Shown here piece by piece: positions 10,095 to 40,133 of a DNA stretch of 64,000 nt; positions within the stretch are counted from its first letter, which is position 1, and every line of letters begins with the position of its first letter. This stretch comes from Lingula anatina (Eukaryota > Animalia > Brachiopoda): the NCBI GenBank assembly GCA_051362555.1, contig CM120643.1, positions 6,572,001 to 6,636,000 of the forward strand, in the 5' to 3' direction. The translations under genes were made by a program, and so were the position numbers. The notes under the pieces are model-generated. The model had not been told where the DNA came from, searched no databases, and saw only the letters and a program-made list of their open reading frames with translations.

Positions 10095-10650
10095 ATGAAA
10101 AAGAAAGGTTGCAATATGGCGGCTGTCTTTCTTGCTATCCGGGCCACCAGAATACAAAGGAGACAACAACGGTTTTATCATAGAAAAAAACCATTAAAAT
10201 CTATGGACGCTGGAGAAATATTCAAAAGATTCTGCCTGTCTAGAAGAGAGGTGGATAGGGTCGTGGAGATCCTGCATGACAATCTCATAACATCGATGAA
10301 GATATCTCACACCCTCTCCACGCAGGTGCAAGTGCTCATTGCTTTGCAATATTTTGCAACTGGAAGCTACCAGAGAGTGGCGGGAGATGCTACTCTAGGA
10401 TGCAGCAAGAGCAGTGTCTCCTGGGCCATCCACAGGGTGGCAAATTTAATAGCAACCTCACAACATGAGGATCTTGCTGTCAAGTTTCCTACCAATCCCA
10501 AGGAAGTTAAAGCGATGAAGAAGAGATTTTATGATGTTGGGATGCATCGACAGTTCACTCATCCTTATACTGGCTCCTACCGATGATGATAGAGCAATAT
10601 TACATCAGGAGAAAAGGCTTCAATTGCCTTAAAAATTGTGGTAAATAGGC
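10095..10650 (+). pseudogene. PIF/Harbinger (HARBI1-like) DDE nuclease, N-terminal fragment
   Basis: RFCLSR...STQVQVLIALQYFATGSYQRVAGD...SKSSVSWAIHRV; after frameshifts GCIDSSLILILAP and YIRRKGFNCL (GxIDGTH / NRKG motifs); truncated. Confidence 0.85.
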
Positions 10651-10904
10651 TAGATGTTTGAAAAAAGAAACCACACTTGCAATGACCTTGTCCGTATGCA
10701 ATTTGTAAACAAAACAACTTACACAGACCAGCTACCACATCCTCGATTACTGCAATGACCAAATGCATTGTTAGCTATTTAAAAAGGAAATAATTTTCTA
10801 TTGACTTGCCAAGTCAGTATTATGACAATGCATTAAAGTCTTTCAAATATATGAATTTTAAGGTATACTAAGCAGAACAGTGTCATAAAAAACAATAGAC
10901 TGGC

Positions 10905-11500
10905 TACATGTATACATCAGAAACCTATGGACCGCTCAGCCTACTTACATAGCACCGGCTTTCATCCTTCACACATCAAAAAATCCATTGTATTTTGCTT
11001 TACAATATTACCTTAAGATACAATAGAATCAACTTGGAACCTGAAAAGAAGAGTGAACAACTTACAGATTTGCAAAAGATTTTTGAAAGACGGCAGTATG
11101 ACACGCAAATGATCAAAGAAACCAAGGGAAAAGCTAATAGAATCCCAAGAAAAGATCTTCTCCAATGCCAAAAAAGGGCACACACAAAAGGGTCCCTTTA
11201 GTAGTCACTTTTAATCCCACCCTTTACCACCTTAAAAAGATGGAACGGGATTTGCAACATATCTTTGACTCTGACACTACGCTCAAAGACATTTTTCCAT
11301 CTCCACCTATCGTCTCTTTCAGACAGCCTCCTAATCTGAAAAAACTCCTGGTTAACAATAACAGCCTTGGCGTCATGGGCACATTTCCTTGCAACAATAG
11401 AAGGTGCCTTCTCTGCCTGTGCAGCATTAACAGCCCCATCATCACTTCGGAAGGCAAGACACTCATCCCTAAGGGAAAATACACTTGTGACTCTCAGAAC
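10905..11500 (+). mobile_element. Penelope-like retroelement fragment (RT C-terminus and linker to GIY-YIG)
   Basis: KPMDRSAYLHSTGFHPSHIKKSI, LRYNRI, RVPLVVTFNP, SFRQPPNLKKLLV, PCNNRRCLLC, YTCDSQN; frameshifted. Confidence 0.85.
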
Positions 11501-11628
11501 AATTCTTTTCTATTATTAGGCATTTTATGTGTTTCAAACATCTAGAACTGATGTGCATGCTACATGTATCACATGTTCCAGTCCAAAATGTGACATTTCA
11601 ATATCAATTCATTAATTTCATTTTGCAG

Positions 11629-11740
11629 ATGACTATGACAAAGTTAGAAGGAAACTGAACATAGCTCAATATGAATCTGACATTGTAACAGAAAATGAGG
11701 AGATTATTCCAGCATCTCAGAGAAGTAAGAGAAAGAAGAG
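11629..11740 (+). pseudogene. isolated exon of a CACTA/EnSpm accessory (ORF2-type) gene
   Basis: ttgcag|...|gtaaga boundaries; DYDKVRRKLNIAQYESDI...RSKRKKR resembles the motif following the N-terminal exon of animal CACTA accessory genes. Confidence 0.55.
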
Positions 11741-12069
11741 GTAAGAAATGTCAGAGACTGCATGTGAACAGGATATTGTATTAACACAGTGAAAAAATAG
11801 AATCAAACTGACACTAATATGAATTGAATGTGGTGCCATAACAACTGGAAGAAATTGTGAATTGATTGAAAGGTTTGTGTTTTCTTTTCATTTAGTGCTT
11901 GAAAAACACAAATGCTATTTTCCTTGAAAAAATTAAAGATTAGTCCAGGTGTGTATGATTATATTATCTGTTATGTTATGTAGTCTATGTACGAGTACAC
12001 TCATATTTTTGTTTTAGTAGCACTAAAGATGAAGAATTTTTATGCTTAATAAATGTACTTGTTAATTTT

Positions 12070-12480
12070 TCGTCATGAGGTTCTCCAAAGAAGGCTCATA
12101 ATATTGGTGGCAATGCAGACTGCTGGTTTCAGGACCCCAGGCCAGCCAACTTCAGAAATAGAGCAGGATACAATCACTGCTTTCAGATTTGCAGAGATAA
12201 TGGCAGCTGCAGAGAAAAGGGACATGAACAAACTGTGTGAGTCACTGTTGTGTCCAAAACCTCAGCACACACCAGCAATCCGGCATGGACAGGACTACAA
12301 GAAATGCACCATACGCAAATTTGAGGAGAGTCATAATCTCTGGAAGCCCCTTTTTGGGGACCACACCAGATGGCTTGATTGGTGTTACTGTAGATGGCAT
12401 TGTAGGGGTCAAGTGCCCATATAAAGGCAGACACATGATAGTTGGTCTCAGACCTGATTTCCCCTTATTGGAATATGAGT
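12070..12480 (+). pseudogene. YqaJ (lambda-exonuclease-like) domain fragment 1, transposon-associated
   Basis: TITAFRF...TPAIRHGQDY..., then after a frameshift PFLGTTPDGLI...IVGVKCPYKGR. Confidence 0.8.
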
Positions 12481-12519
12481 GCTATAAGTCTAAAGAAAAC
12501 AAACAAATACTATACTCAG

Positions 12520-13140
12520 CACATGCAGACAGTATGGACATTAATGTGACCCCATCACAGGCATCATATGTGGTAAGCATAACACGCGAGAAAGCGAAGT
12601 CTGCGAAGTGGGGTCAGTACAGGGTTGGCCGGATCACAGCCTCAAGAATATACGAGGCTACATGCACCACCACAGAGACTCCCTCTAAGTGCCTTGTAAT
12701 AGGCATATGCAAGCAAGTATATGCCATTTAAGAGTGTACAGACTGGCTGGGGCATCAGGAAGGAACCAGTTGCTAAGAAGGAGTATAGCAAGCAGATGAT
12801 TCGGCAGCACAACAACTTCACCATGCAGGATAGTGGTCTGGTGCTTCATCCAGAGTACCCAGAGTTTGGAGCCAGTCCTAATGCCCTAGCTAGTCAGTTG
12901 CAGCTGTTGTGGCTCTAGGCTCTTAGAGGTAAAGTGCCCCTCCAGCCTGAAGGATTCTGAGATCATTGACATATGCCATATTTCAAGGACAAAAAGTCGA
13001 AAAAGGAAAGCAAGTAGTTTTATTAAGTGCAGATGCAACTTTTTTTAACAGAACGCAAATACTGTGACTTTTGCCTCTGGACACTGCATGCAGCCCTCTG
13101 TGAGAGAATCACCTGGGATAATGAACTGTGGGAGCATATT
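12520..13140 (+). pseudogene. YqaJ domain fragment 2 (ISL2EU-type accessory exonuclease)
   Basis: WGQYRVGRITASRIY, TGWGIRKEPVA, SGLVLHPEYPEFGASPNA, CSCCGSRLLEVKCP, QVQMQL-like, RKYCDFCLWT. Confidence 0.85.
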
Positions 13141-13858
13141 ATGTGCTGTTCTGTTTGATGTACAATAGTTTTCCACATTGTAACAATTATGAGATGGAAT
13201 TAATTTATATGTTACTTGCAATTCCTAGTAGAAAAAGGGAAAGTAGGGAAATGAGTCTGCCCCTCAGCGGTCCCGCCCCTCAGTATTAAGGTTTTTAAGT
13301 ATAAATAATGACTTGTCAACAATGTGCCAACAACATATATAAGTGTAACTTACAATAATTCAATTTTAAACAGTGGCATACTAATACCTCCAACAAAGTG
13401 CTTTAAGCAAACGAACGTTCTATCCCATTTTTCTTCTGTTATAATGTCTTTCCGATGTATAGCTTCTGGGTATGCTCGTGAAACTCGGAGACGGGGTTAT
13501 TACATGTCTCTTGTTTTATTTATTTATTTATTTATTTCAATTGTGCATAAATGCTACGGACTGTTGAGCACTCTGTACCACACTCACACTTGTTATATAT
13601 ATCTATGTGGTACATATATTTTTAAAATTCAACGAAACATTGGAGTCCATGCTGATGAAAGTGACAGGAAGACATGATTGAGACCAACAATTACAGCACG
13701 TTAGCTTTGGTTATAACACTGCTAAAAACAATACCACTGGATACTTGCCCTGGGTATGCCTGTGAAAAGCCATATGTCCTAAAGGTTACAAAATGATTGC
13801 CATAATAATAAAAGAATCAATAGAAGAAACCAAATCAAATTCACATTTACTTTTAGCT

Positions 13859-14392
13859 ATGCCTGGGCAGAAATGCAAGTACTGTAGCCTAAGATTCTCT
13901 CGCTCAAACAGAAGATGACATGAAGCAAGTGCCCACGAGAAATTTAAATGTCATGTCAAGAACTGCGACAGAGCGTATTTAACTGAAGAGGAATTGTTGA
14001 AACACAAGGAGGCCAGACACCAGGAGCCCCTGGTGTTGGCTTTCAATACAGAAGAAGAGACCTCTTTACTTGACTCAAGAAAATCACCCCAGCCTGAGCC
14101 CACAGAGAAAAGAGAAGAGCTCCCAACAAAAGTACTAGTAAGACCCACACAAGGGGGAAAAGAGATCAGGATGGATATGACCCCCATACCGCCAATTGAG
14201 GGCTGGAGCTCAGAAGATGAGGAAGAACCCTGCATCGCCATACCATCCCTTCCCTCCCCCATATCAATAGAGGAGGGAATTGCCAAATTGTACGCTCGGG
14301 TCAGGAAATATTCGGAGAAAGAAGTAATTAACCCAGATGGCAAGGAAAAGATAACCAGAAATCTCAACATTGGGTCAACCTTAACCTTATAA
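13859..14392 (+). pseudogene. C2H2 zinc-finger ORF with acidic tail, one internal stop
   Basis: MPGQKCKYCSLRFSRSNRR*HEASAH and KCHVKNCDRAYLTEEELLKHKEARH; the TGA is consistent with CGA decay; in frame with ORF 13994-14392. Confidence 0.7.
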
Positions 14393-14484
14393 CCTTGATA
14401 ATTGTTTTAATTAAATCATTATCTCACTAGAGAGGTATGCATAGGGGTAATTACCCCTCATAAAACGCTTGTTTTACCCCTTTT

Positions 14485-15006
14485 TCATTAAAATTAATTT
14501 TGTGAAAAAAGCGGTCGTCAGTTTTTTTTAACTTTCCAGATTTGATGTTCAGGTTATCTTTAAGAAAAAGAAAAAACATAGGGGCACCAGCCTTACTTTA
14601 TGGCAAATGGACAAAATTTTACTCAAGGTTGAAGAAAAAGCTTGAAAAAGCCAAAAATGCCTGTTTTTCTGGCAATTTAAGTTAGCTGTGAGAAAAAATT
14701 AGACTGGTGACCCTTTGTTTTTGTTTTCTTAAAATTATCTTAACTACCTGAGCATCAAACTGGAAAGTTTAAAAGAATCTGACGACCCATAGGCGGAAAC
14801 AGGGGGGGTCCCGGGGTCTGGACCCCCCCTTTCGTCCGAAATTACCTTTTTTTTGTAGGTAATTTTCCTAATTTCGGGGGGTTGGACCCCCCCCTTGTCA
14901 GATCTGAGGACCTTTTTTAGGAAGTCACACTGATGTTCAAAGGTTGGACCCCCCCTTTCCAGAATCCTGTGTATGCGACCGCTTTTTTCACAATGTTAAT
15001 TTTAAT
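14485..15006. mobile_element. long-arm inverted-repeat MITE carrying a nested insertion
   Basis: cattaaaattaattttgtgaaaaaagcggtcgtcag versus ctgacgacc[insert]gcttttttcacaatgttaattttaatg; inner arms also pair. Confidence 0.7.
14788..14975. mobile_element. MITE (CATAGGCG...TATG termini) with 5-bp TSD CGACC
   Basis: cgacc at 14783-14787 and 14976-14980; the opposite arm of the host element shows the empty site. Confidence 0.8.
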
Positions 15007-15699
15007 GAAAAAGCGGCCATCTTGTCATGTTTGTCTCTGCATGCAGAATCCGGCCGTGAATATTTGTCCTTTATGATTTTGGGGCAGCTTATAGATTTAT
15101 AATTTCATAATTTTGTCAGGAACCAAGGGTATTACAATAAGTGGGCTCAACTGTATCATAATGGTTAGTTGTAAAATATCAATCACATTATAATAGTTAT
15201 GTGAAAAAGGAATTTTGTAACCTTTTGTACAATTGCAGAATGTCTCCTGAGAAATTTCAAGACTTCCGAAAAAGAAGTTGACAGCCTGATGGCCAAACAA
15301 CTTCAGTTTGCTCCATACCGGACTGGAGGTGGAAAGGAAAAAAGCGGCCGGGGATCTTCAGACTAATAATTATGATACTCAGAATGCACTGTGTGTCAGA
15401 TCTATGTTTACTAGCTGTTTCTATAGGTATTTATTAAGGTATACATGGAAGTCAATCAAGTGTGTACATGATTAGTGTAGACTAGGGCTCTAGAGTGATG
15501 CCAATTGGCAGTGTGTGACACCTGCATTATAGAGGGTGACAAAACAATGTAATCACAATTGATATTGACATGTATACATGGGGGTTACAACATAAAGAGA
15601 TTATAAGAATAGGTAAATGACACGATTCAAGTAGTTTGCAGTTAACAATCAGTAGAAATGTATAAGATATCAACTAAGACTTTATCATATCCAATTTCA

Positions 15700-16392
15700 A
15701 ATGATAGCAAGTGTACAGTGGAAATGGACTCAAACTGCTGATATATTTTCCAGAAAGTGATAAGAGATGAAAACTGAAACGACATTAACCTGCCATACCC
15801 ACTACACAGCAGACCTAAGCACCCGTACAAGACCCATGTATGGACAGGTTAGATACTACAGTGAAATATTTAATACTGATGTGAAAAATATGTTTACTTC
15901 ACTTGTAGAAATGTGATGAATTAAAATTTAACATGCACATTGTGTATGTAACAGTCCTGGTATGAAATCTAAATAGCCAAGACTGTGAGAACTAGGCTTT
16001 TAATATAAGAGTACATGTACATGTTAACTAATGGACTGATATTATCTATTTCAGGCATTTTGCAAAAAGGGGCAACACCAATAGTTACATTCATTGGTGC
16101 AATGAACAGTGAAGTGGACCAGGACATTCACTGGCACAATGAACAGTGAAGTGTACCAGGGCATTCACTGGCACAATGAACAGTGAAGTGGACCAGGACA
16201 TTCACTGGCACAATGAACAGTGAAGTGGACCAGGACATACAGTGGCACAATGAACAGTGAAGTGGACCAGGACATTCAGTGGCACAATGAACAGTGAAGT
16301 GGACCAGGGCATTCACTGGCACAATGAACAGTGAAGTGGACCAGGACATTCACTGACACAATGAACAGTGAAGTGTACCAGGACATTCTTTA
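15700..16392 (+). pseudogene. intron-containing IS630/Tc1-like DDE transposase fragment
   Basis: KCTVEMD...RPKHPYKTHVWT, GT-AG intron 15848-16054, then GILQKGATPIVTFIGAMNSEV(Y)QDIL. Confidence 0.7.
16096..16388. repeat. 37-bp minisatellite, about 8 copies
   Basis: unit ggcacaatgaacagtgaagtggaccaggacattcact; starts at 16133 and 16170 give period 37. Confidence 0.95.
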
Positions 16393-17294
16393 TGATTGAA
16401 GATTCCACTTCTGCAAGAAAGGTAAGCAGCAATCAGCAGTTTTAAAACAGAGTCAATCAGTATTATCGTATATCAATTTCTGTTGAGATGTGTGTGTACC
16501 ATTTTATTTTCTTAATCACAGTGCATTTCATTTTTTTAGTGAGCTGTAGGGATTGGAGAAAACAATGGAGGGTTCTTTGTGCCTATCTCTGCCAGAAAGG
16601 GAAGTTTGGCGTAGTCAAACGTTTATTTATGGCGACGGTCTAATACTTCACAAATTTGCCTGTAGCCTCGGATTCGATGCTACACAATTTCTCAACATTT
16701 TGTTTTAGCCTCAGATTCAATGCTGCATCTATCGTTATCAGACTCCTCGTCCAATCGCGGACGTTTATTATGGCACAATTTGTCAGCATTTTGCTTTAGC
16801 CTCGGATTTAATGCTGCATTTATTTTGATCAGACACCCTGTCCAATCACGGACGGGGGTTTCACTTAGGTTCGCATCTCAGCGTTTAACCAAACGAGCGC
16901 TACTATTCCTTCTCACTCTGCTTTATGCAAGATTCTGTATAGTGTATACAATTGTCAGAATAACTTTCCATTCGCCATTTTCAAATTTTTTGTGTTACCA
17001 GTTACGGATTCAGCAGATACATTAGGTTGGGACTTCTTGCGATCCTGCTGATAGATCGACGCATCACTGGCTTTCTCAGGAACAGACCTCTGATCTGCTA
17101 CAAGTAAGTTTTCTTCTTTATTTGATTCATTGAATTTGCGACTTATAGTACTATGCATTTTCCTGACCTTTTCATTGCCACGAACCATCATCGGATCTTT
17201 GACCTTTTCAAGACTAAGTACCAATTCCCTTCATTCAGTTTTGACCTTTTAGGGCCCGATGCCTCTACACCAGCTAGAGGCTTTTTGTCTGTAG

Positions 17295-17390
17295 ATTTGA
17301 TAAGAATGCCAAATGGAGACTAGCATATCCAGATGGAAGTAAAGTTATGGAACTCCCAGATAAATCTGCACCCTTTAATTTAAAAGCTTA
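17295..17390 (+). pseudogene. short exon fragment resembling the N-terminal region of G2E3-like/HECT transposon-associated genes
   Basis: after tgtag acceptor: FDKNAKWRLAYPDGSKVMELPDKSAPFNLKAY; recognition from memory of a YPDG..V..LP....F.L..Y motif. Confidence 0.4.
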
Positions 17391-17563
17391 CAATTGCAGG
17401 CTCCTGAAATACTTGCAGCATGAGACCCGAGGGAATATGACCCCCTCCCAGCATCAGATAACACCTGCAACTGCCTGGATGCAATAGCAGGACTGAGGGT
17501 GGAATTAATGGAAAAAAATTGACAATGTTATGGAAATGCTAAAGACAGTTCAGTCACAGACTG

Positions 17564-20107
17564 CAGGGTTCTCCCCAGGATTTGAAAATAGCCCTTATTT
17601 TTTTTATGCGAGAGTACCGAAGCTCGCAAAGTGAGGCACAAAGGGGGGGGGGGGGGGGTCCGGGGATGTGCCCTCCGGAGGAAAAACTTTCATTATTTCA
17701 TGCAAAAAGGGTGCAATTTCATGCAATCTGAAGCTGTCATTAAATCGTTACAACATAGCCCACTTGCAGGACCAAATTTTGCGGGAAAATCAGGGCTAGA
17801 CACTAACTTCTATGAGCACCTGTCAGAATTTCAATCCAATCTGTCCAACAAAACTAATATTTTTTTTTCTATTCATACCATTGAACTTTGTAAATAAATA
17901 TGTGTAGTCATACAATTAATGCATTTATTGCCAAGACATTCAATTAAGTGAGCCGGAAAATGCACCTTAAAGTGAATTTATTTTCAGATAAAAAGTTGTT
18001 TTTTCATACTTGTGAACTCCTGAAGATTTAATCTTGCATATAAGTCTGATTTAACATTATAAGTTTCAATCAGGGCTTCTCCTAGGATTTTGGGTACAGG
18101 GTCTACTAATTGTAAATCTGCAATTTGATAACAAATTCACATGAAGTTTAACCAAAGCAAAAAATAAACACCCTGAGCGGCAGGTGGGGAGGGGGTACTG
18201 TTAGATTAATTTTATTAAAATATTCGAAATGAAAAATTAAAGAATATTCATCTTATAATACTTTACTTATATTAATGTTAACAATTCAACTTTTTAGGGG
18301 TTATCATGTGTTTGATTTTCTTAAATATATGAGTTAAATAAAATCAGTATAAAAAAGTTCCCCTTTTTATTTAAATTCTCATATTTGTTATTACTAATTT
18401 CTTCCTTACATCAATATCACACTGGTATATGACAGCAATGATAATTTATCATATTCCAGCACTAAATTTTTAACTGTAAATAATATAGGTGATGATAAAG
18501 TCATTAAAGAAAACATCATACAAAATTTCAGGTTATATTTTGGCAAATAAACAACATTTCAACAAGATCTTCAGTCCCAAAGATTTCACGTTCTACAGTG
18601 AGAAGATAACACACACAACATATTTGATTGACAGGCAGTATGTTGCCTGGACAACGAACTAGATATAGCCAGTTCATCTAGTCCAATCTGGCTTTGTAAC
18701 CTTGACAGTACATGTACTTGTGTTGTTTCTGTAACTACTAATGGTCTTTATCTCTAGAGCACGTAGATTTTTAACCAATAAATATTCAGTAGTGAGCCTG
18801 TTATGTGAATAAATTTTGTCTGATGAAGTTCTGGAGGGTGTTCACTTTCATAATTTAGCAGTAAGTTTGCTCAGACTTCGTTTTGCGACTGCATGTGTTT
18901 TGTGCCAAAAGTAGGTCACTCTTTTCAGTACCGTCTAGGAGGAGACAAAAAGACGTTAGTATGCATCAAAAATGATTTTTAAAAAGATTTTTGCTCCAAA
19001 TTTCTCATAAATCATGACCTGTATGTCGGACAGCCAACCCTGCAACTTCACCTGTCCGAGCTGAATTTTTACCTGTCCCGGTGTGGCGTGATAGACCCGT
19101 GCCGTGACGAAACCGTTCTGCACATGCGCATTGAGGGTAAATAGAAAGAAGTAAATTCCGGTATGACGATGTCGTCCTAAGTAGGCGCTATGTTTGCACT
19201 GAACTATGATCTTTCAATTCATAATTCAGTGGTTTTCGTCATGAGAGAGTATGTATTTGATAATCTTATTACTACAGTATACGGGGGAATGTGGAAGAGA
19301 GCTTTTGATCGTGGCTGAACTGTTTTGCTCTGTGTGAAAAACGTGGTAGATCATAGACTTGAATGTTTTCACTCTACAATGTTCATTCAATTCAGAGTTC
19401 AGTCATCTTCATTAAAAAGAAATTGTGTGTTTGATAATACTACAACCTTCTTTACGGGGAAATGTTGGAAATGCATGTGCAGCTACGTACTTTAAGTCAG
19501 CAGACTGCTACACCTTGCGTGAATAATCCGTCAGAACGGTTTATTCACGACGACGGTTTCTTCACGTGACACCGGACAGGCGCTAATGTATTAAATGGCA
19601 TTGCATCTTTTCTGATATTTTCTCTTGCCGCATGGATACATTTATTTATAAATAATCACGACTGCTACTATTCGTCAGTCAAAATAACATGAAGGATAGA
19701 CTATTTATTATATTGCTCCAAAAAATATAGATAAAGCAAACAAATCTCACAGAATTACATTGATGATGAAACTAATAAGCGGATGTTAATATTCAAAACT
19801 TGTCAGTAGGCAGGTCCCGCGCCCTCAACATGAGATGTTAATACTTGTATTACTGTGCCAGGCAGAATAAAAATAAACAACTTAACGTGCACACAAGAGA
19901 TCCAAGTACGCACACAAGTCGTTTACGTTGCGACTGTCAGGAATAAAGGCATTAAAGGCATTGGTCACACACACACTCTTTAAGGGTATCGGAGTTCAAA
20001 GAATCGTGTCGGCAAAAAAAGAAGCGTATCGGCAAAAAGAGATGCGTATCGGCAAAAAGAGATGCGTATCGGTGCCGATAGGCTATAAAGGCTTGGGGAG
20101 AACCCTG
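17564..20107. mobile_element. non-autonomous DNA transposon with hAT-like termini and 5-bp TSD GACTG
   Basis: cagggttctcccca...tggggagaaccctg; gactg at 17559-17563 and 20108-20112. Confidence 0.85.
19082..19571. mobile_element. Ginger1-type non-autonomous element (TGT...ACA, CCGG TSD), nested
   Basis: ~40-bp imperfect TIRs ending in aaaccgttctg; ccgg at 19078-19081 and 19572-19575. Confidence 0.8.
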
Positions 20108-21396
20108 GACTGCGACCCTACCATCCTCAACACGACTCCCACCAGTGCCACCATGCCTTTAACTCTCCCTTCTCTTCCATGTTTTGCTGTCAATTCACCT
20201 CTTGCTGCCCCTGCCTTACCTCCAGCTCTTCCCCCTCACCCCCTCCCACCCATACCCCTTCATGCCCCAACCCCACCATCTCTTCCAGCCCCTTCCCCCT
20301 CAGCCCCTTCAGCCCCTTACCCCTTCAGCCCCTTGTCCTTCACCATTTCCCTCAGGAGGTTGTGCCTCCTCTCCTTCTGAAGTCCCTACATTTCCTTTAC
20401 CTCCACCCACTACAATTCCTTCAGCTACTTTTCCAGCAACCCCAATCAATTGCTCCCACCCATTATTATTATTCTCCTTTCCTCTATCATATTCCATTCT
20501 CTTCTCATCCTCCATTTGCTACTCATCATCCATTCGCCCCTTATCCTCCATTTACTTCTCAGCTTCCATCCTCTTCTCCTTTTCCATCTTCTGCCTACCC
20601 TGCACCTGTTTCTTTTCCGGCAACCCGTTCTTTTTCACCAGCTCCTCCTATAACTTTAAATCCTTCATTTCCTCAACTATCCAATTTCCATCATTATACC
20701 CTATCGTTCAACACAACCACCCTCATATACACCCTATACCAGACCACAAGCTGTCCCCAGAACACCACACCTGCCATCTATGGAAGAGTTACTAGAACTC
20801 AAAGTACGATCCTCCAGCCCCGGAAACTTCTGTGTCGGTTAATGGGAAAGATTTACTCCAAAAATGAGAGGTCCGATCCCAGGTACAATGTATACAATTC
20901 CCAGGAAAGAAGCAAGAACAATAAAAAGGCAATGTACCCAAATCGTATAAAATTCATTAAGGAAAACGTAACTAAGATGTACCCGCAAAATGCAAAACAA
21001 ACTGGATTTTGGGTGAAGTGTGTGACAGCGATGAACTCTGCCAACCGCTCTTTGCAGTTCTATGAAGCCGATAGTTGATTTATTAGTGAATATCACAAAG
21101 CTGTTCTATGTATTATCCCTCACCCTTTATTTAATTTGACATTTTTTATAAAAAAAAAATAAATAAATAAACTAGTAGACCAATTATCAAGTTCAGCAAC
21201 ATATAATTGTCTTTTCCAGCTATTCAGCATGAAAATGAAATGAAAAAGTGCAATGACACAGTTGAAATTAATTCTTTTCTTAATATTTTTGCCAAGCTGA
21301 AGCCTCATTTAGAGTCCCATCTCCACAAGAAGCAAAACCTTGATTTCATGGTATAATAAATTGTGCATAGCTAAACAATGAGATGGAAAAGAAAAA

Positions 21397-21740
21397 GTGC
21401 ACTACTTCCCTCTATATTTAGGTGAAATAGCAGAGGAGTGGCATCAGCAGTTGCCACAAGAAATTCAACAGAACTATGAACAATTAGAAAGAGCATTCAA
21501 GTCCAGATTCTCTCTGCACCCTCAATCTTATGACAAAATATACCATACAAGCACCACAAGAAAAAGAACTTTAGCTAATCAAGTAAATATACCAGATGCA
21601 ATCTTATATTATACCATCATTACTCCCAGAGATCAGGAAATTTGTTATTCAGAAGCAGACAAACTCAATGCTACAATAGGCAGCTGCATTAGCTGAAGCA
21701 TCATTTATGTCCACAAACCCAAATGACAACAAAATGGATC
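21397..21740 (+). mobile_element. Ty3/Gypsy gag fragment
   Basis: YFPLYLGEIAEEWHQQLPQEIQQNYEQLERAFKSRF. Confidence 0.7.
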
Positions 21741-23142: not shown

Positions 23143-23303
23143 GTGGGGTGTCCCAAAACGCTTGCTGTCGGATAAAGGACGGGAGTTCATTGCAGCTATC
23201 AATATAGAGATGTGCAAGGCCTTGAACATTACCTGGTCAGTGACCAGTGCCTATCACCCACAGACAAATGGACTGGATGAGAGGACCAACCAAACCCTAA
23301 AGC
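23143..23303 (+). pseudogene. Ginger/GIN-like integrase core exon fragment
   Basis: AG|WGVPKRLLSDKGREF...TSAYHPQTNGLDERTNQTLK; same acceptor position as the exon at 33322. Confidence 0.85.
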
Positions 23304-23734
23304 ACGACTCGGCTGTAGTGTTTTCTGTCACTGCCGAGAGGATCCTGGGGTTCCTGTGCACAGGGGTGGTCACATACGTAAATAAAGATGCCTCCAGATA
23401 TGCACAAGAAAGCTGATATCACGCTCTCTCCTCCACTTGAAGAAAACGTCAAGAAAACTCAAGCCACGCTGTCCCTATTATACACCCACCAAACACAAAA
23501 CGTTCTTACAAAGTGGAGAAATATGGTATATATGTGACATGGGAAATCATCGTTTTAACGTGGTGGATGGTTTCAGTGTAGAAATTTAACCTGTGTACAT
23601 GCCTTATTAGGGTTAAAGGATGGCAGAAAGAATTAGGCTGCCTGCATTGGGTGCAAGAAGCACAGATTATTCTATGTGTGATTAATGGATGAATATTGTG
23701 ACTTAGTTTAAAACTTTCTTTTGATGATACAGAG

Positions 23735-23892
23735 ACAATACCTCAGCGCCATTGGGGGCAGCCATCTAAGAGACTCTATAAGAAGAATGATCCAAAAATT
23801 GGAATCCAACAGATTGTGGGCAAACTTCAGCCTCAAAGGGAGAAAGAGAAAGAAACCATTTAGCAACTTAGCTATTTGTGCAGTAATTATTA
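23735..23892 (+). pseudogene. DUF4806-like exon (CACTA accessory gene C-terminus)
   Basis: YLSAIGGSHLRDSIRRMIQKLESNRLWANFSLKGRKRKKPFSNLAICAVII followed by gtaagt. Confidence 0.75.
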
Positions 23893-24261
23893 GTAAGTGT
23901 TTATTTATAGAATACAAAGCTAAATTTTATGTTCAATGCAGGGTGGCCCAAAGTACAAGGCATGTGTATCAAATAAGGTTAAGAATGAAATTAAGGCCAT
24001 GAGATAAGGATATTATAAAAAATTGTGTACATTTTGTATACGAAGCATATACAATGTATACAATGCTATAAGGGCCATTAAGGAGCCACAGTACCTTAAT
24101 TTATAAATACCTCAATGAAGGAGTAGGTGAGACAGTAATGGGAAATATGTTTTATCAAATTCCATCAAATGCATATTGTATACTTAAAAAAGAATAGATA
24201 ATAGTTTTGGAAGAGGTTATTTGATTACCCCTTTCACTCACTTGAAATAAATATATCTTAG

Positions 24262-24892
24262 GTAGGTGCCCTCACAGAACGTTTATATACTGGTATATTT
24301 GATGTTACTGATGTTGCTGCTAAGACTGCATTATTACCTTTGAATGAAGAGTATGTATCTATTCCATTGCTTTAATTTGTGAAAATTAAATAAATTATTG
24401 TGATCTTGCAAATGTGTTTTGTCATACAGAAGGAATATTTGTACAAATTCAGTTTTTTATTACATGATGATTTGTTTCTCACCAGTACTTAGCATTTATT
24501 TTGTGTGTGTGTTTGTGTAAATGATAAAAAAATAATCTAAATGAAATTGTTATGTAATGAAGTATGAAGCTAAAGGGAAGTACCTTCACTTCACACCGAT
24601 ATTATAAATCTTTCTTACAATCAACTTGTATAAAATGTGCATGTTTTTGGGAACAAACTTATTTTGTAACTGCATTTGATAATTTTAATAGGTTGGCATT
24701 CCATCATGTATGCTGTTGTTCTTTTTGACAAAACAAATGAGGCTGAGGTGGTGCCATCATCATGGATTGATGGCGACAAGTGTTTGTGGCCTGACCATCT
24801 GAAAAGTACAACTGTTACAAAGGCCATTGAGCGTAATGTGTCTCCAACTGCTGATTAGAGGCCATACAGTGTTACAGTATGAAGACAACGAG
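24262..24892 (+). pseudogene. CACTA fragment: last exon of transposase plus first exon of accessory gene
   Basis: ...DVAAKTALLPLNEEYVSIPLL* (24262-24375); MYAVVLFDKTNEAEVVPSSWIDGDKCLWP... (24706-24892, donor gtcagt). Confidence 0.7.
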
Positions 24893-25959
24893 GTCAGTCT
24901 TTAAAAATTGCCAAAATTGTGAGTGAAGTTTATGTTCTAATTTTTATTGGCTTCATATAAATAGAATGAATAGCATCATTTTTTTGCAATCATTCATTAA
25001 TATAGATATAATTGTTGAATGCTAAACCTTCTAAGCTGCATTTGCAGATGACAATCAAAAGGCATGCCTGAAGTGTAGAAATTGGGGGCATCATGCACTG
25101 CGACCAAGCACAAGATTTTCGATTCCATAACCCCCATATGGGGCAAGTATGGGCAAGTTATGAAATCAGCTTGTCTCAGGGTACGGCTTGTTATCTACTC
25201 AAACTTATGTGGAAATTTTCACTCCATGTACTAGTAGTCAGCCATATTTATTCCTGCCATGAGGTAGCTGCTACATGCTTACATAAGATGGGTACACAGA
25301 TAGTGTATCTTTTGTATAAAAAGAACAACTCCAAAGAAAAAAAAATGTAGGTCTTTGAAAGGAAAGCAGAGGTAAGAGTTAGTAAAATATTTTCAGTTGC
25401 AGGCAGAAAAAGTAAATTAACTTTCATGTAATACACGCTATCAAAAAATGAAAAATATGGTGTCCAAATGTATTGAGTATATTCTATTTCTATTCTTATT
25501 TTTTAGGATTAAGAAAGATAAAAATGTAAAATGTTCTTCAGATATTCAAAGTTATTTTAATTAAGATAATAGCAGATGTACATTGGGTGGCCCCTAATTT
25601 TTATAGACCCTCAAAGGGTGGGCCTGACTCACAATTAATGCCACAGATCACTGACCAAATAGGATGAAAAACTGGAAGATTCTTCTGTTTCTTTCATGTG
25701 TAACAGTTGCTTGGCTATCTCTAACACCATTTCACCACATTCACTGAGGGTATTGATTTGGTCACTGATCTACTTGACACAGAAGCCATTCAAAGCATTT
25801 TGGCGAAAATAAATAAATAAATAAATAATACAGTGAGATAACAAATAGTGCTGGTGTGGAAGGTAAAGTCATAAGTAACAAAACTAGGGTGTGTGTGATG
25901 GCACCTTTTATTTTACTTTTTATGCAAAATAGACATTAAAAGGGGGTATTTAGACAACA

Positions 25960-26125
25960 ATTTTAGTTGTACAAGTTGGTGGTCAGAATTGTGGTCTATT
26001 TGCCATTGCAACAGCTGTGTGTTTAGAGAACAAGGTTGACCTGTATGACATTGTTTTCAGTCAAAAGCAGATGAGAAGACACTTGTATGAGTTTTTGTAG
26101 GGGGAAACTGGTAATGTTTCCATGT
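25960..26125 (+). pseudogene. Ulp1/C48-like protease C-terminal fragment, as carried by Ginger1-type elements
   Basis: QVGGQNCGLFAIATAVCL...FSQKQMRRHL...KLVMFP (Q...[DN]CGLFAIA catalytic Cys motif). Confidence 0.7.
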
Positions 26126-26999
26126 GAGATTAAGACCCAATCAGTAAAAGTGACATATATAACTATATCAAAAAAGTAGTTTGTTACGTTATAATGTGTT
26201 ACGTTATAATGTGATTGTGGTATCTCGTGACTTTTTGACCAATAAGAACATTGCAAATTGCACACTCCAGAAGAGGAAAAAAGGTCAAGGTCAAGTGAAC
26301 GCAACAGAAGCGTTTTCTCCGCAGCATGGCGATACATGTACTGATGACCGGGGCTGATGAATGGTGCGAGATTTGTCATTGATCTACGATTCAAACATGA
26401 GAAATATTCTGGGAAAAGGACCCGTGTACAACATGTATGGATTCCCAATGGAGAGAGGTATTTTGTATGTGACTGAATGACGTACTCCTCCGAATCCGTC
26501 GATGCATAACTATAGCGGTGTCAGTGTGACTTGGATTTTCATGAGAAACTGTGCCGCAGGAGAATGTTATTGAGGTGAACAATAATTTGTTTGACAATGT
26601 GGATGTATTTAACTTTAAAGCGAGGAGGAGGATGTGGCGATAGGCCTGACTGCCCAAGGTGGCATTTATTGACATACATGTGTGCACCATCCATCAACTT
26701 CAAGACATTATAATCATTCATGTACAAATGACTTTTAAGATTAACTGTAATATTGTTTATTCTTGTTTAGCTTGTTATATTATGTTCTAGTTCTGAAAAT
26801 TGTTAAAATTGTGTTAATCATAGCTTAGTAATATAGTAAAATTGTCCAAGAACATTGCTTTATGTTATGAGAATCTGTCCGTAACAAGTTTTACAATCAC
26901 TACATGGTTTTAAAATAAAATAAAATAAATACAGGTGGACCTCTAAACAACTTATCTTAGGACCTAATCTAATATTTTGGCATTTATTTTAAGACAAGT

Positions 27000-27800
27000 G
27001 TGACATTAATGTTGAAAAAGATGTCCTAACTGACCCTGCTGTAGAAACCCATCACTGGTACTGGACATAGAGAAATTTCTAAATGATAATATCCCTGGGT
27101 CTAGTGGATAGCTTAATCTAAAAAAAATCTGTGAAACAGGTCATCGCAAGTAAGGGATTGTTCAAGATTATAATAGTTACTTGAACCTAAACAAATGGTT
27201 AAAAGATATGCTTTAAAAACATTATGGGGATAAAATTGTTCTAAAAACCTTCAAGAAAATGCAGTCATCTGAAAGAAGCAAAGTTTTTTGACACATCAGA
27301 TTTGGAAAATAAAAGTGCTGACCTCTTTTGGAATTATTTATTTCAGTTTGTTTATAGTAATTATGCCAATTCAGTTTTGAATGCAGATATTACCCAGCAA
27401 ACAAGTATTCTCAACTGACAGAGGTTTCAAAAATTGTTTATTTTGGGCTATTTGATGAAAACACAGATAAATTTGAAACTGTCCTTATTGTTTTGGACCA
27501 TTTGTATATTTCTTTAAAAGTGGGAAAAGATCTGGACTATCTAGTGGTAGCTGGTGATGGCAAAGTATATTCCCATCTCATGCAATATGTACAGGAATCC
27601 AAAGGTGAACTTCATTGCCTACTTCTTTATCTTGGAGAATTTCACACACTAAAAAACTTTCAACATGTTTTACTTAAAATCTTTTATAATGCAGGTTTAA
27701 AAGAGCTAATTAATCTATTTCATCTTGGGGCTACAGATAAATCCGTGGCTAAAGCCAAGAATTTTGAGAAAACACATATGTATGTTTCTACTACAAATTA
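27000..27800 (+). pseudogene. Academ-like transposase fragment
   Basis: YLVVAGDGKVYSHL...LLLYLGEFHTLKNFQHVLLKIFYNAGLKEL; boundaries approximate. Confidence 0.6.
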
Positions 27801-28637
27801 GGGAAGGTTTTTTTTATAATTGAAACTGAATTATACTATAAATGGAAGCGTGGAAATATTGATTTGTCTAATGAAGACATAACTGTTAAACTTGCTGACA
27901 TGATGGGAAAAATTTGTTAGAAAGGAGTGGTGAGAAATGTGATTTTACCTGTAATTTTCTTGAAGATATTTAAGAAACTCAAACAGAATTCTCAGAGTTT
28001 ACCAGAGAGTTATCCCACAAAATAAAACCTGGTCTTTTTGGTTAAATTTTGTTCACAGAGATTGCTTTTTATACAATTCTTTATATTTTTCTGTGAGAAC
28101 AGGTGATTGGAATCTAAGAAAATTTTGTTTGAAAAACCAATGAGACAAAAGTGAAGGCATGGCAGGAAATTACTAGGTTTGGGCCAATTTTTTTTTATCA
28201 AAAGCACAAGAATAGGTGACTTGAATATTGATATATTTTAATCTTATAATTCTTTCCTCCACTAAAGTACTTCTTTTATAAACATAAGGAATTACATCAT
28301 TATGCACAGCATATTGAAGATAATTGGAAACATTAAATTTTTGTTTACTTATCACAGAAAAAATTAGTTATATCTTATTGATTTTCAGAGTCAACAATAA
28401 AGGTCTTGGGAGAAAAGATGTGAAAGTTATAAGGAAGAAGTGGTCGGATTTTTCCAGCTGCTCCAAAAAGGAGGCAGAAAGAAAGAGGAAGATTCAAAAC
28501 ACTGATGGAGGTGGGGTCTCTCAAATAATGTTGACTCCCATCCAAGAAAAGGTTAAATAATGTTAGCATTTTATAAAAAAAATTAAATGTATATAGTCAG
28601 AACATACCTTATGTAGATGGCTTTGTGTTTGAATATA

Positions 28638-29826
28638 CGGTAAAGTCTTGAAAATTTCGTCGTTCTTGAAAATTTCGTCGGCAGACGATTTTCCGCCGAC
28701 GTAATTTTTTTCCCTTTGAAAACTTCGTCGACCTTGAAAATGAGGTACTCGATAATTTTTGAAAAGTTCGTCACCAAATATGGCCGCGTTGTCCAGCTCA
28801 AACATGAAGGTAATGCGTCAGTTGAACCAAGACAATGATACGATCAGGATATCATTGCTGATAACACTCTCAATGGGAGATAGGAACAATAGTGCGCCCC
28901 TGCGAGCGGTTACTCACAATATAGATGGTTTAGATGTGAATTCCCGTTCTCAGTTGCGGGAACGTCGGCCTTTTGTCTTTAGTTTCATTACTATTACCTG
29001 GCTTAAGGTGCGTTATCAAGCCGGTAAATAGAAGTCACAGGCCGCGGCTTTGTCATTTGTAACGCCGTTATTGTTATCGGCGGCTGTCCTAAATGAGGAA
29101 GACACAATGAAAAAATCAAGATATTATCTCGAAGTGAAATGTATCCGTCACTTCTATTCATGTCCATGTTCAATTTAGGACCATTTAACGATTACCTGGC
29201 TTGTACATGGAGATCGTTCGCAATGCGAATGGGACGAGATGGCAATATTCATATCTTCAGCGGAGAATCGTTCGCGTGATATCGTCAACAGATCGTTCGC
29301 GATCCAAACGAAACGAGAAGATAATTTTCATATTTGTAGCGGACTCCGTTCGCGTAAGATCATCAGCGGGAGATCGTTTGCGATTTGAGAGAGACGAAAA
29401 GGCAATCTTCATATCTTCAGCGGCAGATCGTTCGCGATGTAAGCGAGAATAAAATGCACTTTTCATATTAGTTCAAGGGAACCTCGTTTGTGGAAGATCG
29501 TCAGCAGGAGATCATTATTTTAACCCTCCCTCCCCCTTTGAATTTTATGAATAATATATATTTTTCATTTTATCATTAACCCCCCTTCCCCCGCTCACGG
29601 CATATCTTCAGCGGAGAATCGTTCGCGTAATATCGTCAAGACTTTGTTTGCGTAAGATCGTCAGAGGGAGATCGTTCGCGATCCGAGCGAGACGAAAAGG
29701 CAATTTTCATATCATCATCGGGAGATCGTTCGGGATGTAAGCAAGAATGAAATGCAATTTTCATATTAGTTCAAGGGATTTAGGGAACTTCGTTCGCAGA
29801 AGATCGTCAGCGGAAGATTATTTAAC

Positions 29827-29860
<34 letters not shown>

Positions 29861-30451
29861 TTGGATTTTTAAAAAAATATTCATTTTCATTTGATCTTTA
29901 ATCCGCCCCCCCCCTACCCCCGCTCACGGTATATCTTCGGCGGAGAATCGTTCGCGTAATATCCTCAGGACTTTGTTCGCGTAAGATCATATCAGAGGGA
30001 GATCGTTCGCGATCCTAGCTTGACGTAAAGACAATTTTCATGTCTTCATCGGGTGATTGTTCGCGATGTATTAGCAATAATAAATTACAGTTTTCATATT
30101 AGTTCATGGAACTTAGTTTGCGAACGATCGTCAGCGGGAGATCATTATTTTAACCCCGCCTCCCCCTTTGAATTTTATAAATAATATATATATTTAGTTT
30201 TATCTTTAACCCCCCCCCCCTTCCCCGCTCACGGCATAACTTCGGCGGAGAATCGTTTGCGTACTATCGTCAGGACTTTGTTCACGTAAAATCGTCAGAG
30301 GGAGATCGTTCGCGATCCGAGCGAGACGAAAAGGCAATTTTCATATCATCATTGGGAGATCGTTCGCGATGTAAGCAAGAATGAAATGCAATTTTCATAT
30401 TAGTTCAAGGGATTTAGGGAACTTTGTTCGCGGAAGATCATTATTAAACCC

Positions 30452-30482
<31 letters not shown>

Positions 30483-31272
30483 ACACACTTTGGATTTTTT
30501 AAAAATATTAATTTTCATTTTATCTTTAATCCGCCCCCTGCCCCGCTCACGGTATATCTTGGGCAGAGAATCGTTCGCGTAATATTCTCAGGACTTTGTT
30601 CGCGTAAGATCATATCAGAGGGAGATCGTTCGCGATCCTTGCTAGACGAAAAGGCAATTTTCACATCTTCATCGGGAGATTGTTCGCGATGTAAGCAATA
30701 ATAAAATGCAGTTTTCATATTAGTTCAAGGAACTTAAATTGCGGAAAATCGTCAACGGGAGATCATTATTTTAACTCCCTGTAAATTTTTAGGAAGTTAC
30801 AGATGGTAATTTTAGAAGGCCTGACACTCAATCCTGGGAAAAGTCCTGCATGCAACAAACGTTCCCAAGTGCGTAATTTTTTTAACATGTCGCGTCCAGG
30901 TTATGATGCAAGGTTGCAATTAGGCTTATCTTGATCCTTCTCCTCTATCAGGAGGTATGTTTCTTACCGAGAAGATAATTCTCAACATGTTTTCGGGTAG
31001 CCTACAGTAAGTTAAGTATAACTTAATCGAGATGCACTAATAAATAGATTATTATTTACCACCAGAAAATGACTTAGGAAGTAGTAATAAATATCCCACA
31101 ATACAGGAGCGTCAAAGATAACAGTCGCTAAGGATAAAAGCCCAAAGGCCGGATTTTTGAAAATTTCGTCATACCCAGGAGTCGGGGAGAGGTAATTTTG
31201 AAAAATTAGTCGGATTTACACAATTAAAAATATTAATTAATTTTTAAGCTACGAAATTTTCAAGACTTTACC

Positions 31273-31273
<1 letters not shown>
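28638..31273. mobile_element. non-autonomous TA-targeting DNA transposon (Tc1/mariner-like termini) with internal tandem repeats
   Basis: TIR cggtaaagtcttgaaaatttcgt / acgaaattttcaagactttaccg; TA flanks, right flank expanded to (TA)n; lies in the Myb-gene intron. Confidence 0.85.
29205..30780. repeat. ~300-340-bp tandem repeat, about 5 units in alternating A/B types
   Basis: ccgctcacgg(c/t)at anchors near 29591, 29920, 30225 and 30543; repeated gggagatcgttcgcgat submotif. Confidence 0.85.

Positions 31274-31316
<43 letters not shown>
31274..31316. repeat. (TA)n microsatellite
   Basis: direct reading. Confidence 0.95.
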
Positions 31317-31318
<2 letters not shown>

Positions 31319-32504
31319 AACAATTATTATAGGTACTTTTGTTTCAGGTTGTGTCAATTATTGTTGAGACTGCCATTGCTGGCTTTCAAGGAGAAATTGA
31401 CACATTCCAGCAACAAAATCAAAATGACAAGTATATCAAAATTACAACCGAGGAGCTCAAAATTTTAGTGGACGGGGCCTCTGCCAAGAGCAACTTTTTT
31501 TTCCAAAATTCAGCAATGTTAACGTTATAACTAAGAGACTGAAAGAAGAAACATGGGAGGCAATAACAAATAAGTAAGTTGATTAGTTACTTTGTCAACG
31601 CATTGCAATTATTGATCCTACATTAACTGCCCCAAAGAACTGTCCCCTTTAGAACAAATATAATAATATAATATAATTGTAAAAAAATAAATAAATAAAA
31701 ATTATGAAAAAGGTAAGGTGTTATAAATAAAATTGATTACCTATTGCTGTATATTACTTCAAGTGAGGTGTATCTTATTTTGTTTATTAAATTTCAGATA
31801 ATTGAGATTATAGGGGAATTGGCCCTCAAAGGTGTTGTTGGGGGCCAAGAAACAGAAGAACCACCATCTACCTGTGTGTAATGAGAGAGGAACTGGAAGG
31901 TACTTTATTAATACCAGTAATCTAAAGTCCGATTTTTTTTTTTTACATACATAGATCAATCTTATTTCTAATATTTTAACATTAGTTATTTTTTTGTTAT
32001 TAGTTATTTTTTTGTTTTGTGTTTCTGTTGTTTTTTTTCCAGAAGTCCCAGATAAAATACAGGTACAACCAAGAAAGGCATCAAAGAAACAAGTCAGATT
32101 TTTTTAAATATTAATTCATCTTCCATAATGAAGACTGATTTGGAAAAAGCAAGGTGCCATTTTATAAATTTTAATATAGGCCTCGACAAACTATATGGGG
32201 AGAGAAATTGTACTTTTAATGCACATTGTTTATTGCATTTTGTCTTGAAAGTCGAGGATTTGAGGCTAATGAGGGCACACAGCCAAAAGCTTAAATGAGA
32301 AAATTTCATGGAACCCAGCAGGTAGAATTGCAAATAGTCACAGTGGTGTACATTCAACACAAATTACCAGAGCTGATTGAACAAGTAAAGGATGGTGCTG
32401 TGCAGGCCCTGGTGAAGCAGATGACTAAACGGTCAAGTTTGAAATTTTCAGGTAGGATAGGTAATTCCTCTCATATCCTGTTCCAACCACGCAAGAATAG
32501 TTAC

Positions 32505-32610
32505 AGTTAAAAGTGAAATCTAAGGGGCCAAGTAATTTTTGCATTCTGTTAATGGGCAGGATATATTCTAAAGAAGAACGCCTTGACCCAAAGAAGAACA
32601 TGGGGGGCTC
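32505..32610 (+). pseudogene. second BEN-domain fragment, paralog of the domain at ~20815-21078
   Basis: SKGPSNFCILLMGRIYSKEERLDPKKN aligns by eye to SSPGNFCV.LMGKIYSKNERSDPRYN. Confidence 0.65.
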
Positions 32611-32819
32611 AAGGACAGCACAATATAACCAAAGACCACAGACTACACTATATATCAAAAACAGCTTCAGAAATTGTATCCATTCGTAATGAACGAGGAG
32701 CTATGGAGACCATGTCTCTCAGCAATGAACACTGCCAATCAAAATTTGAGGTGTTCACAAAAGATCAACATATAGGAAAGCTAACACGTGTTTCTCTACA
32801 ATACACATTCATGGCTGAT

Positions 32820-34698
32820 TGAGGCAACATTTGAAAGAGCAACCAATTAACATACAGACCATGGCACACCGTGGTAGAAAATGAAGAAGAAAAGCAGACA
32901 ATTATCAAACATATGCACAGTGACAGTGAGTGAAATTTACAGATATTACTATTCTTTGACAACCTTTGGATTTATATTACTGTGAATGGAGTGTTAGTGA
33001 TATGCATATACTGATATTACAATGTACTACCAGGTGCTTTGTGCTTTCTTGTTGGGAAATGTTGTACTTTCATACAACATTTCCCAACAAGAAAGCACAA
33101 AGCACAGTCCTTACTATTTAATGTTTGGCACATAAGTAAATGATAAAGTAGACCCCATTTTAAAGTAACATCAAGTAAACTATTGTCCTCACTCTCTGAA
33201 ATACAAGTGGTCTTTAATTCTGAACACTAAGTCCCATATTATAATATTGCCCTATTGAAATGGTCTGTATGATAATCATATTTTTGGTTGGTTTTAATGC
33301 CATTTCATTTTGAATTGTCAGGTGGGGAGCACCAAAAAGGCTCCTGTCAGACCAAGGAAGAGAGTTTGTGGCTGAAATAAATACAGAGGTTTGCCGCTCC
33401 CTCAGCATAGAGAGGTCTGTGACAAGTGCCTATCATCCTCAGACCAATGGTCTGGATGAGAGAACAAACCAGACACTGAAGACTCAAATGAGCAAGCTCA
33501 TTAATGAACACCAGATCGACTGGGATACTTATTTGGAGGATGTGGTGTATTTGATCAGGACACAAAAGCAAACGTCCACAAAGTTCACCCCTTTTTTTCT
33601 TATGTTTGGGAGGCACCCTAGGTCTCTGAAGGAGGTAATTCTAGATTAAAATTTTTAATGATTTAGACAAGATAAAATTTGGAACATTTTTATTATGATT
33701 TTCTGACATCTCAGTAATAGGTTTGTTACATCACTGAAATTGTGTTTGAAAAGCAGTCTATGTGCAGCCAAAATGTGTATTAACTATGATATGCTTTGGT
33801 CTTGTCATTTATATCAAACCTATTTAATCTTTTATATCATGTAGACCTTTTTTTGATTATCAGTTATTTCTATACTGTATATGCTTAAATGGCTGCACTA
33901 CAAATATTTTATTTACCTACCTATTTTTCATTCATCTGATTATTTTACTTAACAGGCTGTCTGCTAGTCATGCTACTGATCCTGTCTTTATCTTAAATGA
34001 AGTAGGAAGCATGAAACATTGCTCCTGTGTTAAAAAAAATAACATGATGAATTTTAAAGAGGTTTTCTAATTTCAATTGTGATTTCCATTTTTAGATGAT
34101 TGCCAAAGTACTGAAGTTCTGGAAGACATGGTCAACCATAGAGAGGCACTGTTAGATGTCACCAATAAAGTTGTAAGTACAAAGACACACATAATGTGCT
34201 TCATTAAAGGGTTCTAGCATGTTACAGTTGTATCAAAATTGTATTTGAATATGAAATACTCTTCTTGTTTTATGACTGCCTATAGGTGTTATATTTGTGT
34301 TTCTAATAAGCAACTGTGCATTCATTACTAGGACATAGTATTTTAATGTACAGACACCGTGTACGTAGCCATCACCTGCCTCTGTCATGGTGCACTTTTT
34401 TTCATTGTTACTTCACTAACCTAAATACTGATATAGCTTTTTGCCTCAAAGTTATTAGTTAATTTGATGCCTGTATATGTGCCATCTTCACTGTCTATAT
34501 TTTTCTTATGTGTTTTTCTTAGGTACAAGAGAATGTGGAAAAGGCCCAAACAAAACAGAAGGAGAATTTTGCAAAGAGAAAGGCAAATGGCGTCAAATCC
34601 TTTGACCTTTCAGTTGGAGACATGGTCATGAAAAGGGCTATGAAAAACATTGGAAGAAAGGGAGGAAAAATGGAGCATCTGTGGACTGGGCCTTATCG
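32820..34698 (+). pseudogene. intron-containing Ginger/GIN-like integrase gene fragment
   Basis: exon ending EEEKQTIIKHMHSD|gtgagt; exon 33322-33634 WGAPKRLLSDQGREF...AYHPQTNGLDERTN...TPFFLMFGRHP; exon from 34097; exon 34523-34698 ...VGDMV...GGKMEHLWTGPY (GPY/F motif). Confidence 0.85.
33034..33105. repeat. perfect 33-bp-stem hairpin with 6-nt loop
   Basis: gtgctttgtgctttcttgttgggaaatgttgta-ctttca-tacaacatttcccaacaagaaagcacaaagcac. Confidence 0.9.
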
Positions 34699-38950: not shown

Positions 38951-38966
38951 AGAAATGATTGAACTG

Positions 38967-40125: not shown

Positions 40126-40133
40126 GTTCGCAT

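Follow-up and report, generated by a model that had tools for sequence, protein, structure and literature searches.

A co-oriented patchwork of transposon coding pieces in the Lingula anatina genome as a likely uni-strand piRNA-cluster-like archive

We analyzed a window of 64,000 nucleotides (nt) of the brachiopod Lingula anatina (GenBank assembly GCA_051362555.1, contig CM120643.1, positions 6,572,001 to 6,636,000; GC content 32-41%) and found in it a block of ~26 kb, spanning ~10 to ~35.9 kb of the window, that holds ~25 short broken pieces of unrelated transposon coding sequence, nearly all of them on the plus strand. The pieces are co-oriented and of mixed origin, several keep introns, some bear internal deletions, and the block has received later non-coding insertions and occurs in deletion variants. 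With a probability of about 0.6, we read it as an archive resembling a uni-strand cluster of PIWI-interacting RNAs (piRNAs), rich in DNA transposons, in which transcription along the minus strand would run through the block and yield a precursor of piRNAs against many families. The layout is that of a uni-strand cluster, with dense transposon fragments and a strong one-strand bias. A first-pass annotation made from the letters of the window had proposed the same reading and had ended the block at 34698; the dense block is there, but plus-strand pieces go on beyond that position.

The co-oriented, dense patchwork of transposon coding pieces is real, as the first-pass annotation had claimed, and well above chance. 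Twelve transposon-type pieces with support from search tools lie on the plus strand and none on the minus strand (p=5e-4), in a tally that derives partly from tblastn references fetched with plus-strand pieces as seeds. They comprise two CACTA transposase pieces, four Ginger- or Gypsy-type integrase pieces, and one each of DUF6589 (Academ-like), Ulp1-like, YqaJ, BEN, DUF4806 and gag type. When pieces named by eye from motifs are added (Harbinger, Penelope, Tc1-like, G2E3-like, Myb/SANT, BEN-type scraps and the end of a long interspersed element, LINE), the count becomes ~25 against 2 (p=6e-6). We also scanned both strands symmetrically with Pfam, using stop-to-stop open reading frames (ORFs) of at least 40 amino acids (aa) between ~9.8 and 36 kb (150 of 152 on plus, 150 of 154 on minus). 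The plus set returned YqaJ twice (E 2.9e-5 and 0.0019), BEN (1.3e-4), Retrotrans_gag (3.4e-4), rve twice (~8e-5 and 1e-4), DUF4806 (0.004), zf-C2H2_6 (0.004) and DUF1258 (0.014), while in the minus set no match fell below E 0.01 and none was to a transposon family. This amounts to seven independent pieces within the block against zero (p=0.016). Inside the block, tblastn matched the minus strand only as shadows of the plus-strand integrase ORFs.

A codon model gave the same picture when each piece was scored without having been used in training. In the block, 55 plus and 14 minus windows of 346 are coding-like, and half of the latter (7 of 14) merely lie opposite a proline-rich tract; since the windows overlap, we give no p-value. 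The flanks show neither the density of the block nor its bias: the left flank has 2 plus and 2 minus coding-like windows of 132 (4, compared to 69 of 346 in the block), and the region from 38 to 51 kb has 3 plus and 17 minus of 177. Among splice motifs, AGGT[AG] donors lean to the plus strand (63 against 39, p=0.02), and most other splice motifs and AATAAA are without strand bias in the block. The codon counts, together with 12 against 0 and ~25 against 2, make it very improbable that the block is an ordinary heterochromatic transposon graveyard whose run of orientation arose by chance, even though the window was chosen from a very large scan and many of the pieces are named by motif. Weak matches can also mislead, as with a PPV_E2_C match of E 1.4e-4 in a stop-rich frame at 15560-15859, which we rejected as an artefact.

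The structure of the pieces indicates how the block may have been built. Several of them keep splice ends, in line with the introns noted in the first-pass annotation, and therefore arrived as DNA. The first CACTA piece skips residues 605 to 714 of its relative P0154 and the DUF6589 piece likewise lacks an internal stretch of its relatives, which indicates deletion in place. The coding pieces themselves have no ends of their own, in agreement with the earlier description, which saw no terminal inverted repeats (TIRs) or long terminal repeats (LTRs) on them; as a correction to it, the block also contains TIR-bounded non-coding insertions at 14477-15016, 22758-22983 and 28633-31278. Contigs assembled from DNA reads (set X1) include versions that lack 17565-20113, 19082-19602 and other segments with the order of the pieces kept, and at least three structural versions are present (joints 17516>20108, 17564>20772 and 20096>22521); at the 17565-20113 segment, the letters between the two sides of the joint match 20114-20141. 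Since these contigs cross some junctions and carry deletion variants, the patchwork is not an assembly artefact and is structurally variable. An array of 37 bp in 8 tandem copies (16087-16388), inside an exon-like piece, is missing from one version (joint 16109>16401). Insertion followed by trimming would be the simplest account of the build-up, with capture of short pieces as the alternative.

Capture on a larger scale would make the whole block the cargo of one multi-copy element of Helitron or Pack type, or a young segmental duplicate, with its orientation set by the capture. The structural versions and the introns, kept as in DNA-level capture, fit this explanation, and so does read depth: junction-spanning X1 contigs reach 231 (9966-10409) and 466 (26181-26884), far deeper than contigs identical to the window (27-52). 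Many variant joints have depths of 100-146, which is also consistent with alleles of one locus. With a median of ~400 in low-copy bins, these depths may stem either from several copies that are nearly identical or from a single locus sampled by a deep, uneven or pooled library. Neither self-BLAST nor a 13-mer scan of 4-11 against 34-48 kb found a TIR or LTR bounding the block; both returned only short scattered matches. Our search for a Helitron 3' hairpin followed by CTRR gave two candidates in the window (8697 on plus, 14430 on minus), neither of which closes the block. The sole Helitron-like 3' end within it, a 16-nt hairpin 12 nt before CTAG-T at 14426-14460, lies on the minus strand inside a high-copy insert. 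Moreover, none of the 300 block ORFs on both strands matched a conventional host-gene exon in Pfam, so captured host exons are missing, and this is consistent with selection for transposon content. Helitrons can capture sequences in one orientation, a behaviour for which the literature searched gave no support. We thus consider a single giant element, which the first-pass annotation had named among the cases that would overturn its reading, doubtful, with several copies still allowed by the X1 depths; a duplication would in any case be compatible with a piRNA locus. A 22-base motif from the contig of depth 466 had no match in metagenome contigs.

We then relied on RNA to ask in which direction the block is transcribed. 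Three libraries (X12, stranded and polyA-selected; X15; and X18, which looks unstranded) were aligned to 9200-29150, the stretch over which DNA depth was also read, with a 90% likeness threshold and a sample of 6-25% of every run. Part of 20000-29000 is found in 10 contig sets, which come from 4 studies of a single organism (word shares 0.06-0.47), with no RNA set listed among them. Two 2024 runs presumed to be DNA (X7 and X9), with small contig totals and ~0.3 of the words, do not enter the analysis. X15 reads that match 11824-11876 run on into 12085-12113, skipping a likely GT-AG intron of the YqaJ pieces (11873-12079), and lie first-mate-minus; first-mate-plus therefore denotes minus-strand RNA. 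The direction of X12 agrees with that of X15 at 8 of the 11 shared sites compared. Of 30 bins, we dropped 11 high-copy ones and counted strands in the 19 whose DNA depth is below 1100. X12 has more minus- than plus-strand RNA in 11 of them and the reverse in 4, with 4 empty (~64 against 23 reads); most of the signal in one minus-leading bin, at 13196, comes from a short pile of cross-matching reads. In X12 the dropped bin 9866-10531 has only minus-strand RNA, and 6 of 6 reads at 10303 are nearly identical to the window and the cleanest has one other difference from it. Four minus-strand reads carry the deletion 27914>27972, which the DNA also shows. These data suggest antisense transcription, and fall short of proving one continuous precursor. 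A relative of the YqaJ piece is transcribed in sense and spliced in both X15 and X18, so that at least one possible live target of the antisense piece is expressed.

Several observations weigh against the archive. The lean of X12 is not significant (sign test p=0.12), X15 is nearly even (6 minus, 5 plus and 8 empty low-copy bins), and in X12 plus-strand RNA prevails at 16.5-17.9 kb and 21.9-22.5 kb. RNA coverage is ~1x with gaps, as the empty bins show; of the 611 reads of X12, only 41 reach 99% likeness to the window, and 65-74% of the placed reads (65% in X12) run on into unlike sequence, so that many stem from other loci. We identified no promoter or upstream minus-strand gene. The limits of the block were set after the bias had been seen. 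Finally, two pieces, recognized by motif or codon score, are probable minus-strand exceptions (9900-10060 and 16958-17230). The claim that every identifiable fragment lies on plus thus holds for all tool-supported pieces and not for these two. The second, which the first-pass annotation had placed at 16955-17224 as a possible exception, scores as coding, and a search for its relatives found none. Beyond these two, the scan for minus-strand fragments, which the earlier note had proposed as a check, gave no transposon family. The cluster reading as first proposed keeps its anatomical fit and the minus lean of X12, with a lean short of significance and a neutral X15 against it.

The same sparse minus-strand reads, and the plus-strand bias of donor motifs, could also be explained if the block lay in a long intron or long non-coding RNA of an ordinary minus-strand transcript, with no piRNAs involved. 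Transposons within introns are known to be biased to the antisense orientation, and sense insertions would be purged because their splice and polyA signals would disrupt the transcript. We regard this as unlikely. The ORFs scanned (150 of 154 in the block, 150 of 262 in the flanks) revealed no host exon on the minus strand, and the only host-like gene seen is on the plus strand at 60 kb. An intron would also leave unexplained why coding cores of about ten superfamilies lie end to end beside a left flank that is nearly free of coding-like sequence.

If the block is a piRNA-producing archive, its history would run as follows. Elements would insert, or be copied in, as DNA; selection would retain antisense pieces, remove most sense pieces and exclude host exons; deletions would trim each element to its coding core; and a minus-strand precursor would supply antisense piRNAs against many transposon families. 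The production of piRNAs and the silencing would follow from established piRNA biology. More speculatively, and with low confidence, marine invertebrates may keep compact, polymorphic antisense libraries of scraps from the catalytic cores and accessory genes of many DNA-transposon superfamilies, added as short internal stretches of DNA instead of whole insertions and possibly forming a duplicated family, as a CRISPR-like sampling archive. Such libraries would then be predictable from genome sequence alone.

The pieces along the block are collected in Table 1. Two integrase scraps, at 13625-13762 and 33013-33135, had been missed by the first-pass annotation. Among its family names, CACTA, integrase, YqaJ, BEN, gag, Ulp1 and Academ-like held up, whereas Harbinger, Penelope, Tc1-like, G2E3-like and Myb/SANT were confirmed by no database search. 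The Harbinger-like piece has no relative in the protein collection, viral contigs, Pfam, NCBIfam or PDB; the Penelope-like piece has no Pfam match, and the codon model partly prefers the minus strand at 11251-11400. The DUF6589 piece, a domain that we take to mark Academ elements, has 399 relatives (best E 2e-25), 11 of the 12 long ones with DUF6589, and its nearest named relatives are in Mytilus and Branchiostoma. Over all block pieces, the closest named relatives are in Mytilus, Branchiostoma, Haliotis and Ptychodera. Integrase exons A and B are 72% identical, and the locus nearest to exon B (L001) also has an intron-like gap. The Ulp1-like piece is of the kind that tblastn locates downstream of a Ginger-type integrase in another genome (L020:8001-9790), where an integrase match is followed by a Ulp1-like protease and a PHD-like ORF in what is likely a Ginger-type element. 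An Atlas search of 34992-35207 returned only noise below 0.9.

Table 1. Pieces and insertions along the block (window coordinates; RT, reverse transcriptase; TRF, Tandem Repeats Finder)
Feature	Position	Strand	Basis
Probable broken Gypsy RNase H scrap, left edge	9900-10060	-	Motif by eye; tblastn and Pfam without confirmation
Harbinger/HARBI1-like nuclease, N-terminal piece	10116-10544	+	Motif by eye; codon score up to 13
Penelope-like piece, end of RT to GIY-YIG linker, frameshifted	10920-11500	+	Motif by eye
Single intron-bounded exon, DUF4806-type transposon gene	11629-11741	+	Codon score 14; family named by eye
YqaJ-type exonuclease pieces	11824-13150	+	PF09588
Integrase scrap, Gypsy/Ginger type	13625-13762	+	tblastn from 15 loci, best E 6e-5
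C2H2 zinc-finger piece	13860-14390	+	Weak Pfam, E 0.004-0.025
High-copy non-coding insert(s)	14426-15016		TIR pair 14477/15016; DNA depth 3000-4800
BEN-type C-terminal scrap, then Tc1/IS630-like scrap	15205-15860	+	Motifs by eye, unconfirmed by Pfam
91-aa ORF, possible exception	16958-17230	-	Codon score 7-8.5
G2E3-like transposon-gene piece	17250-17564	+	Motif by eye; codon score ~7
Segment rich in high-copy repeats, missing from other haplotypes or copies	17565-20113		DNA joints 17516>20108, 17564>20772
Proline-rich tract plus BEN domain	20114-21075	+	PF10523
Gypsy-type gag scrap	21349-21800	+	PF03732; tblastn E 2.6e-4 (21349-21516)
CACTA transposase pieces, internal deletion between	21885-22549	+	tblastn with 11 PF02992 relatives, E to 8e-30
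Ginger-type integrase exon A	23141-23302	+	rve; tblastn E 4e-17
DUF4806 piece and N-terminal scrap of same gene type	23712-24860	+	PF16064; second by motif
Ulp1-like protease piece	25969-26190	+	48% identity, E 1e-8, to L020 ORF behind integrase match
DUF6589 (Academ-like) transposase piece, internal deletion	27364-28242	+	tblastn E 8e-31
Myb/SANT-like exon, Harbinger accessory type	28389-28557	+	Motif by eye; splice ends in sequence
TIR-bounded non-coding insertion	28633-31278		42-nt TIRs, 90%; internal ~320-bp tandem array (TRF)
Further Myb/SANT-like exons	31347-31574	+	Motif by eye; codon score 10
Second CACTA transposase piece	32110-32820	+	tblastn E 4e-12 for 32110-32495
Further integrase scrap	33013-33135	+	tblastn from 15 loci, E 9e-5
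Ginger-type integrase exon B and downstream exons, introns kept	33322-34711	+	tblastn E 2e-36, 2e-9
Mutator-like piece and LINE-type 3' end	34830-35850	+	PF20700 E 0.057, weak; LINE by motif

To the right of the block, coding-like remnants at 36900-44700 lean to the minus strand in the codon model and are mostly one long Gypsy remnant, whose pol region from RNase H to integrase lies at 38200-39990 on minus (tblastn E 3e-9 at 39495-39764). A divergent, two-armed cluster with a minus arm right of 36 kb is a weak lead. This side of the window also holds a near-perfect foldback at 40125-40958 (303-nt arms, 96% complementary, 228-nt spacer), what is presumably a Penelope-like GIY-YIG piece on minus at 44242-44716, named by motif, and a LINE zinc-binding 3' piece on plus at 45284-45667 (zf-RVT, E 3.3e-5). 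Further on, tandem repeats fill 51880-56200 and 57000-58818: a composite array with a ~194-bp period, ordered in higher-order units of ~1 kb, and a satellite of 62 bp in 29 copies (96%). The host-like gene, at 59900-60900 on plus, is built of short exons and encodes a starch-binding domain of type CBM20 (PF00686, E 1.4e-5, over the gathering score); GTAAG donors in 59-64 kb number 16 on plus and 2 on minus.

In flies and mosquitoes, piRNA source loci with a one-way layout have been studied in detail, and their targets there are retroelements and viruses. Our literature search, outside which most subscription papers lie, found no description of a one-way cluster of DNA transposons in a marine invertebrate. 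If our reading is correct, it would extend the one-way design of piRNA loci to cut-and-paste elements in such an animal, and would offer a sequence-only route to these loci together with a record of the families that the host has met. The layout is also relevant to how clusters gain and trim their content, which is still an open question. Like the block, Helitron and Pack-type elements with captured fragments are patchworks of intron-bearing pieces without ends of their own, but their cargo is mostly host genes and their termini are defined (PMC3288121), and neither was found here. DNA transposons (Kolobok, hAT5 and hATw) are over-represented in the piRNA clusters of Lymnaea, as is Gypsy (PMC6128900). 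The paper, which also covers Crassostrea, stresses young elements of low divergence, and the word 'strand' is absent from its main text; the pieces of our block are short and decayed, and their one-way layout has no counterpart in that main text. In their layout, flamenco and flam-like unistrand clusters of Drosophila (PMC10643416) resemble the block. In the species quoted there, flamenco-type loci measure 227-1085 kb and owe their bias to Gypsy elements, whereas the block covers ~26 kb and consists mostly of coding cores of DNA transposons of 0.1-0.9 kb; the long Gypsy remnant at 38.2-40 kb lies on the other strand. The block thus falls outside a strict flamenco-like class that is Gypsy-driven and hundreds of kb long. 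Mosquito core piRNA clusters (10.1101/2022.08.22.504762) are, as the block would be, traps for short foreign antisense fragments, but their content is viral and they originate when transcription of an upstream gene reads through, and no such minus-strand gene is seen at the block.

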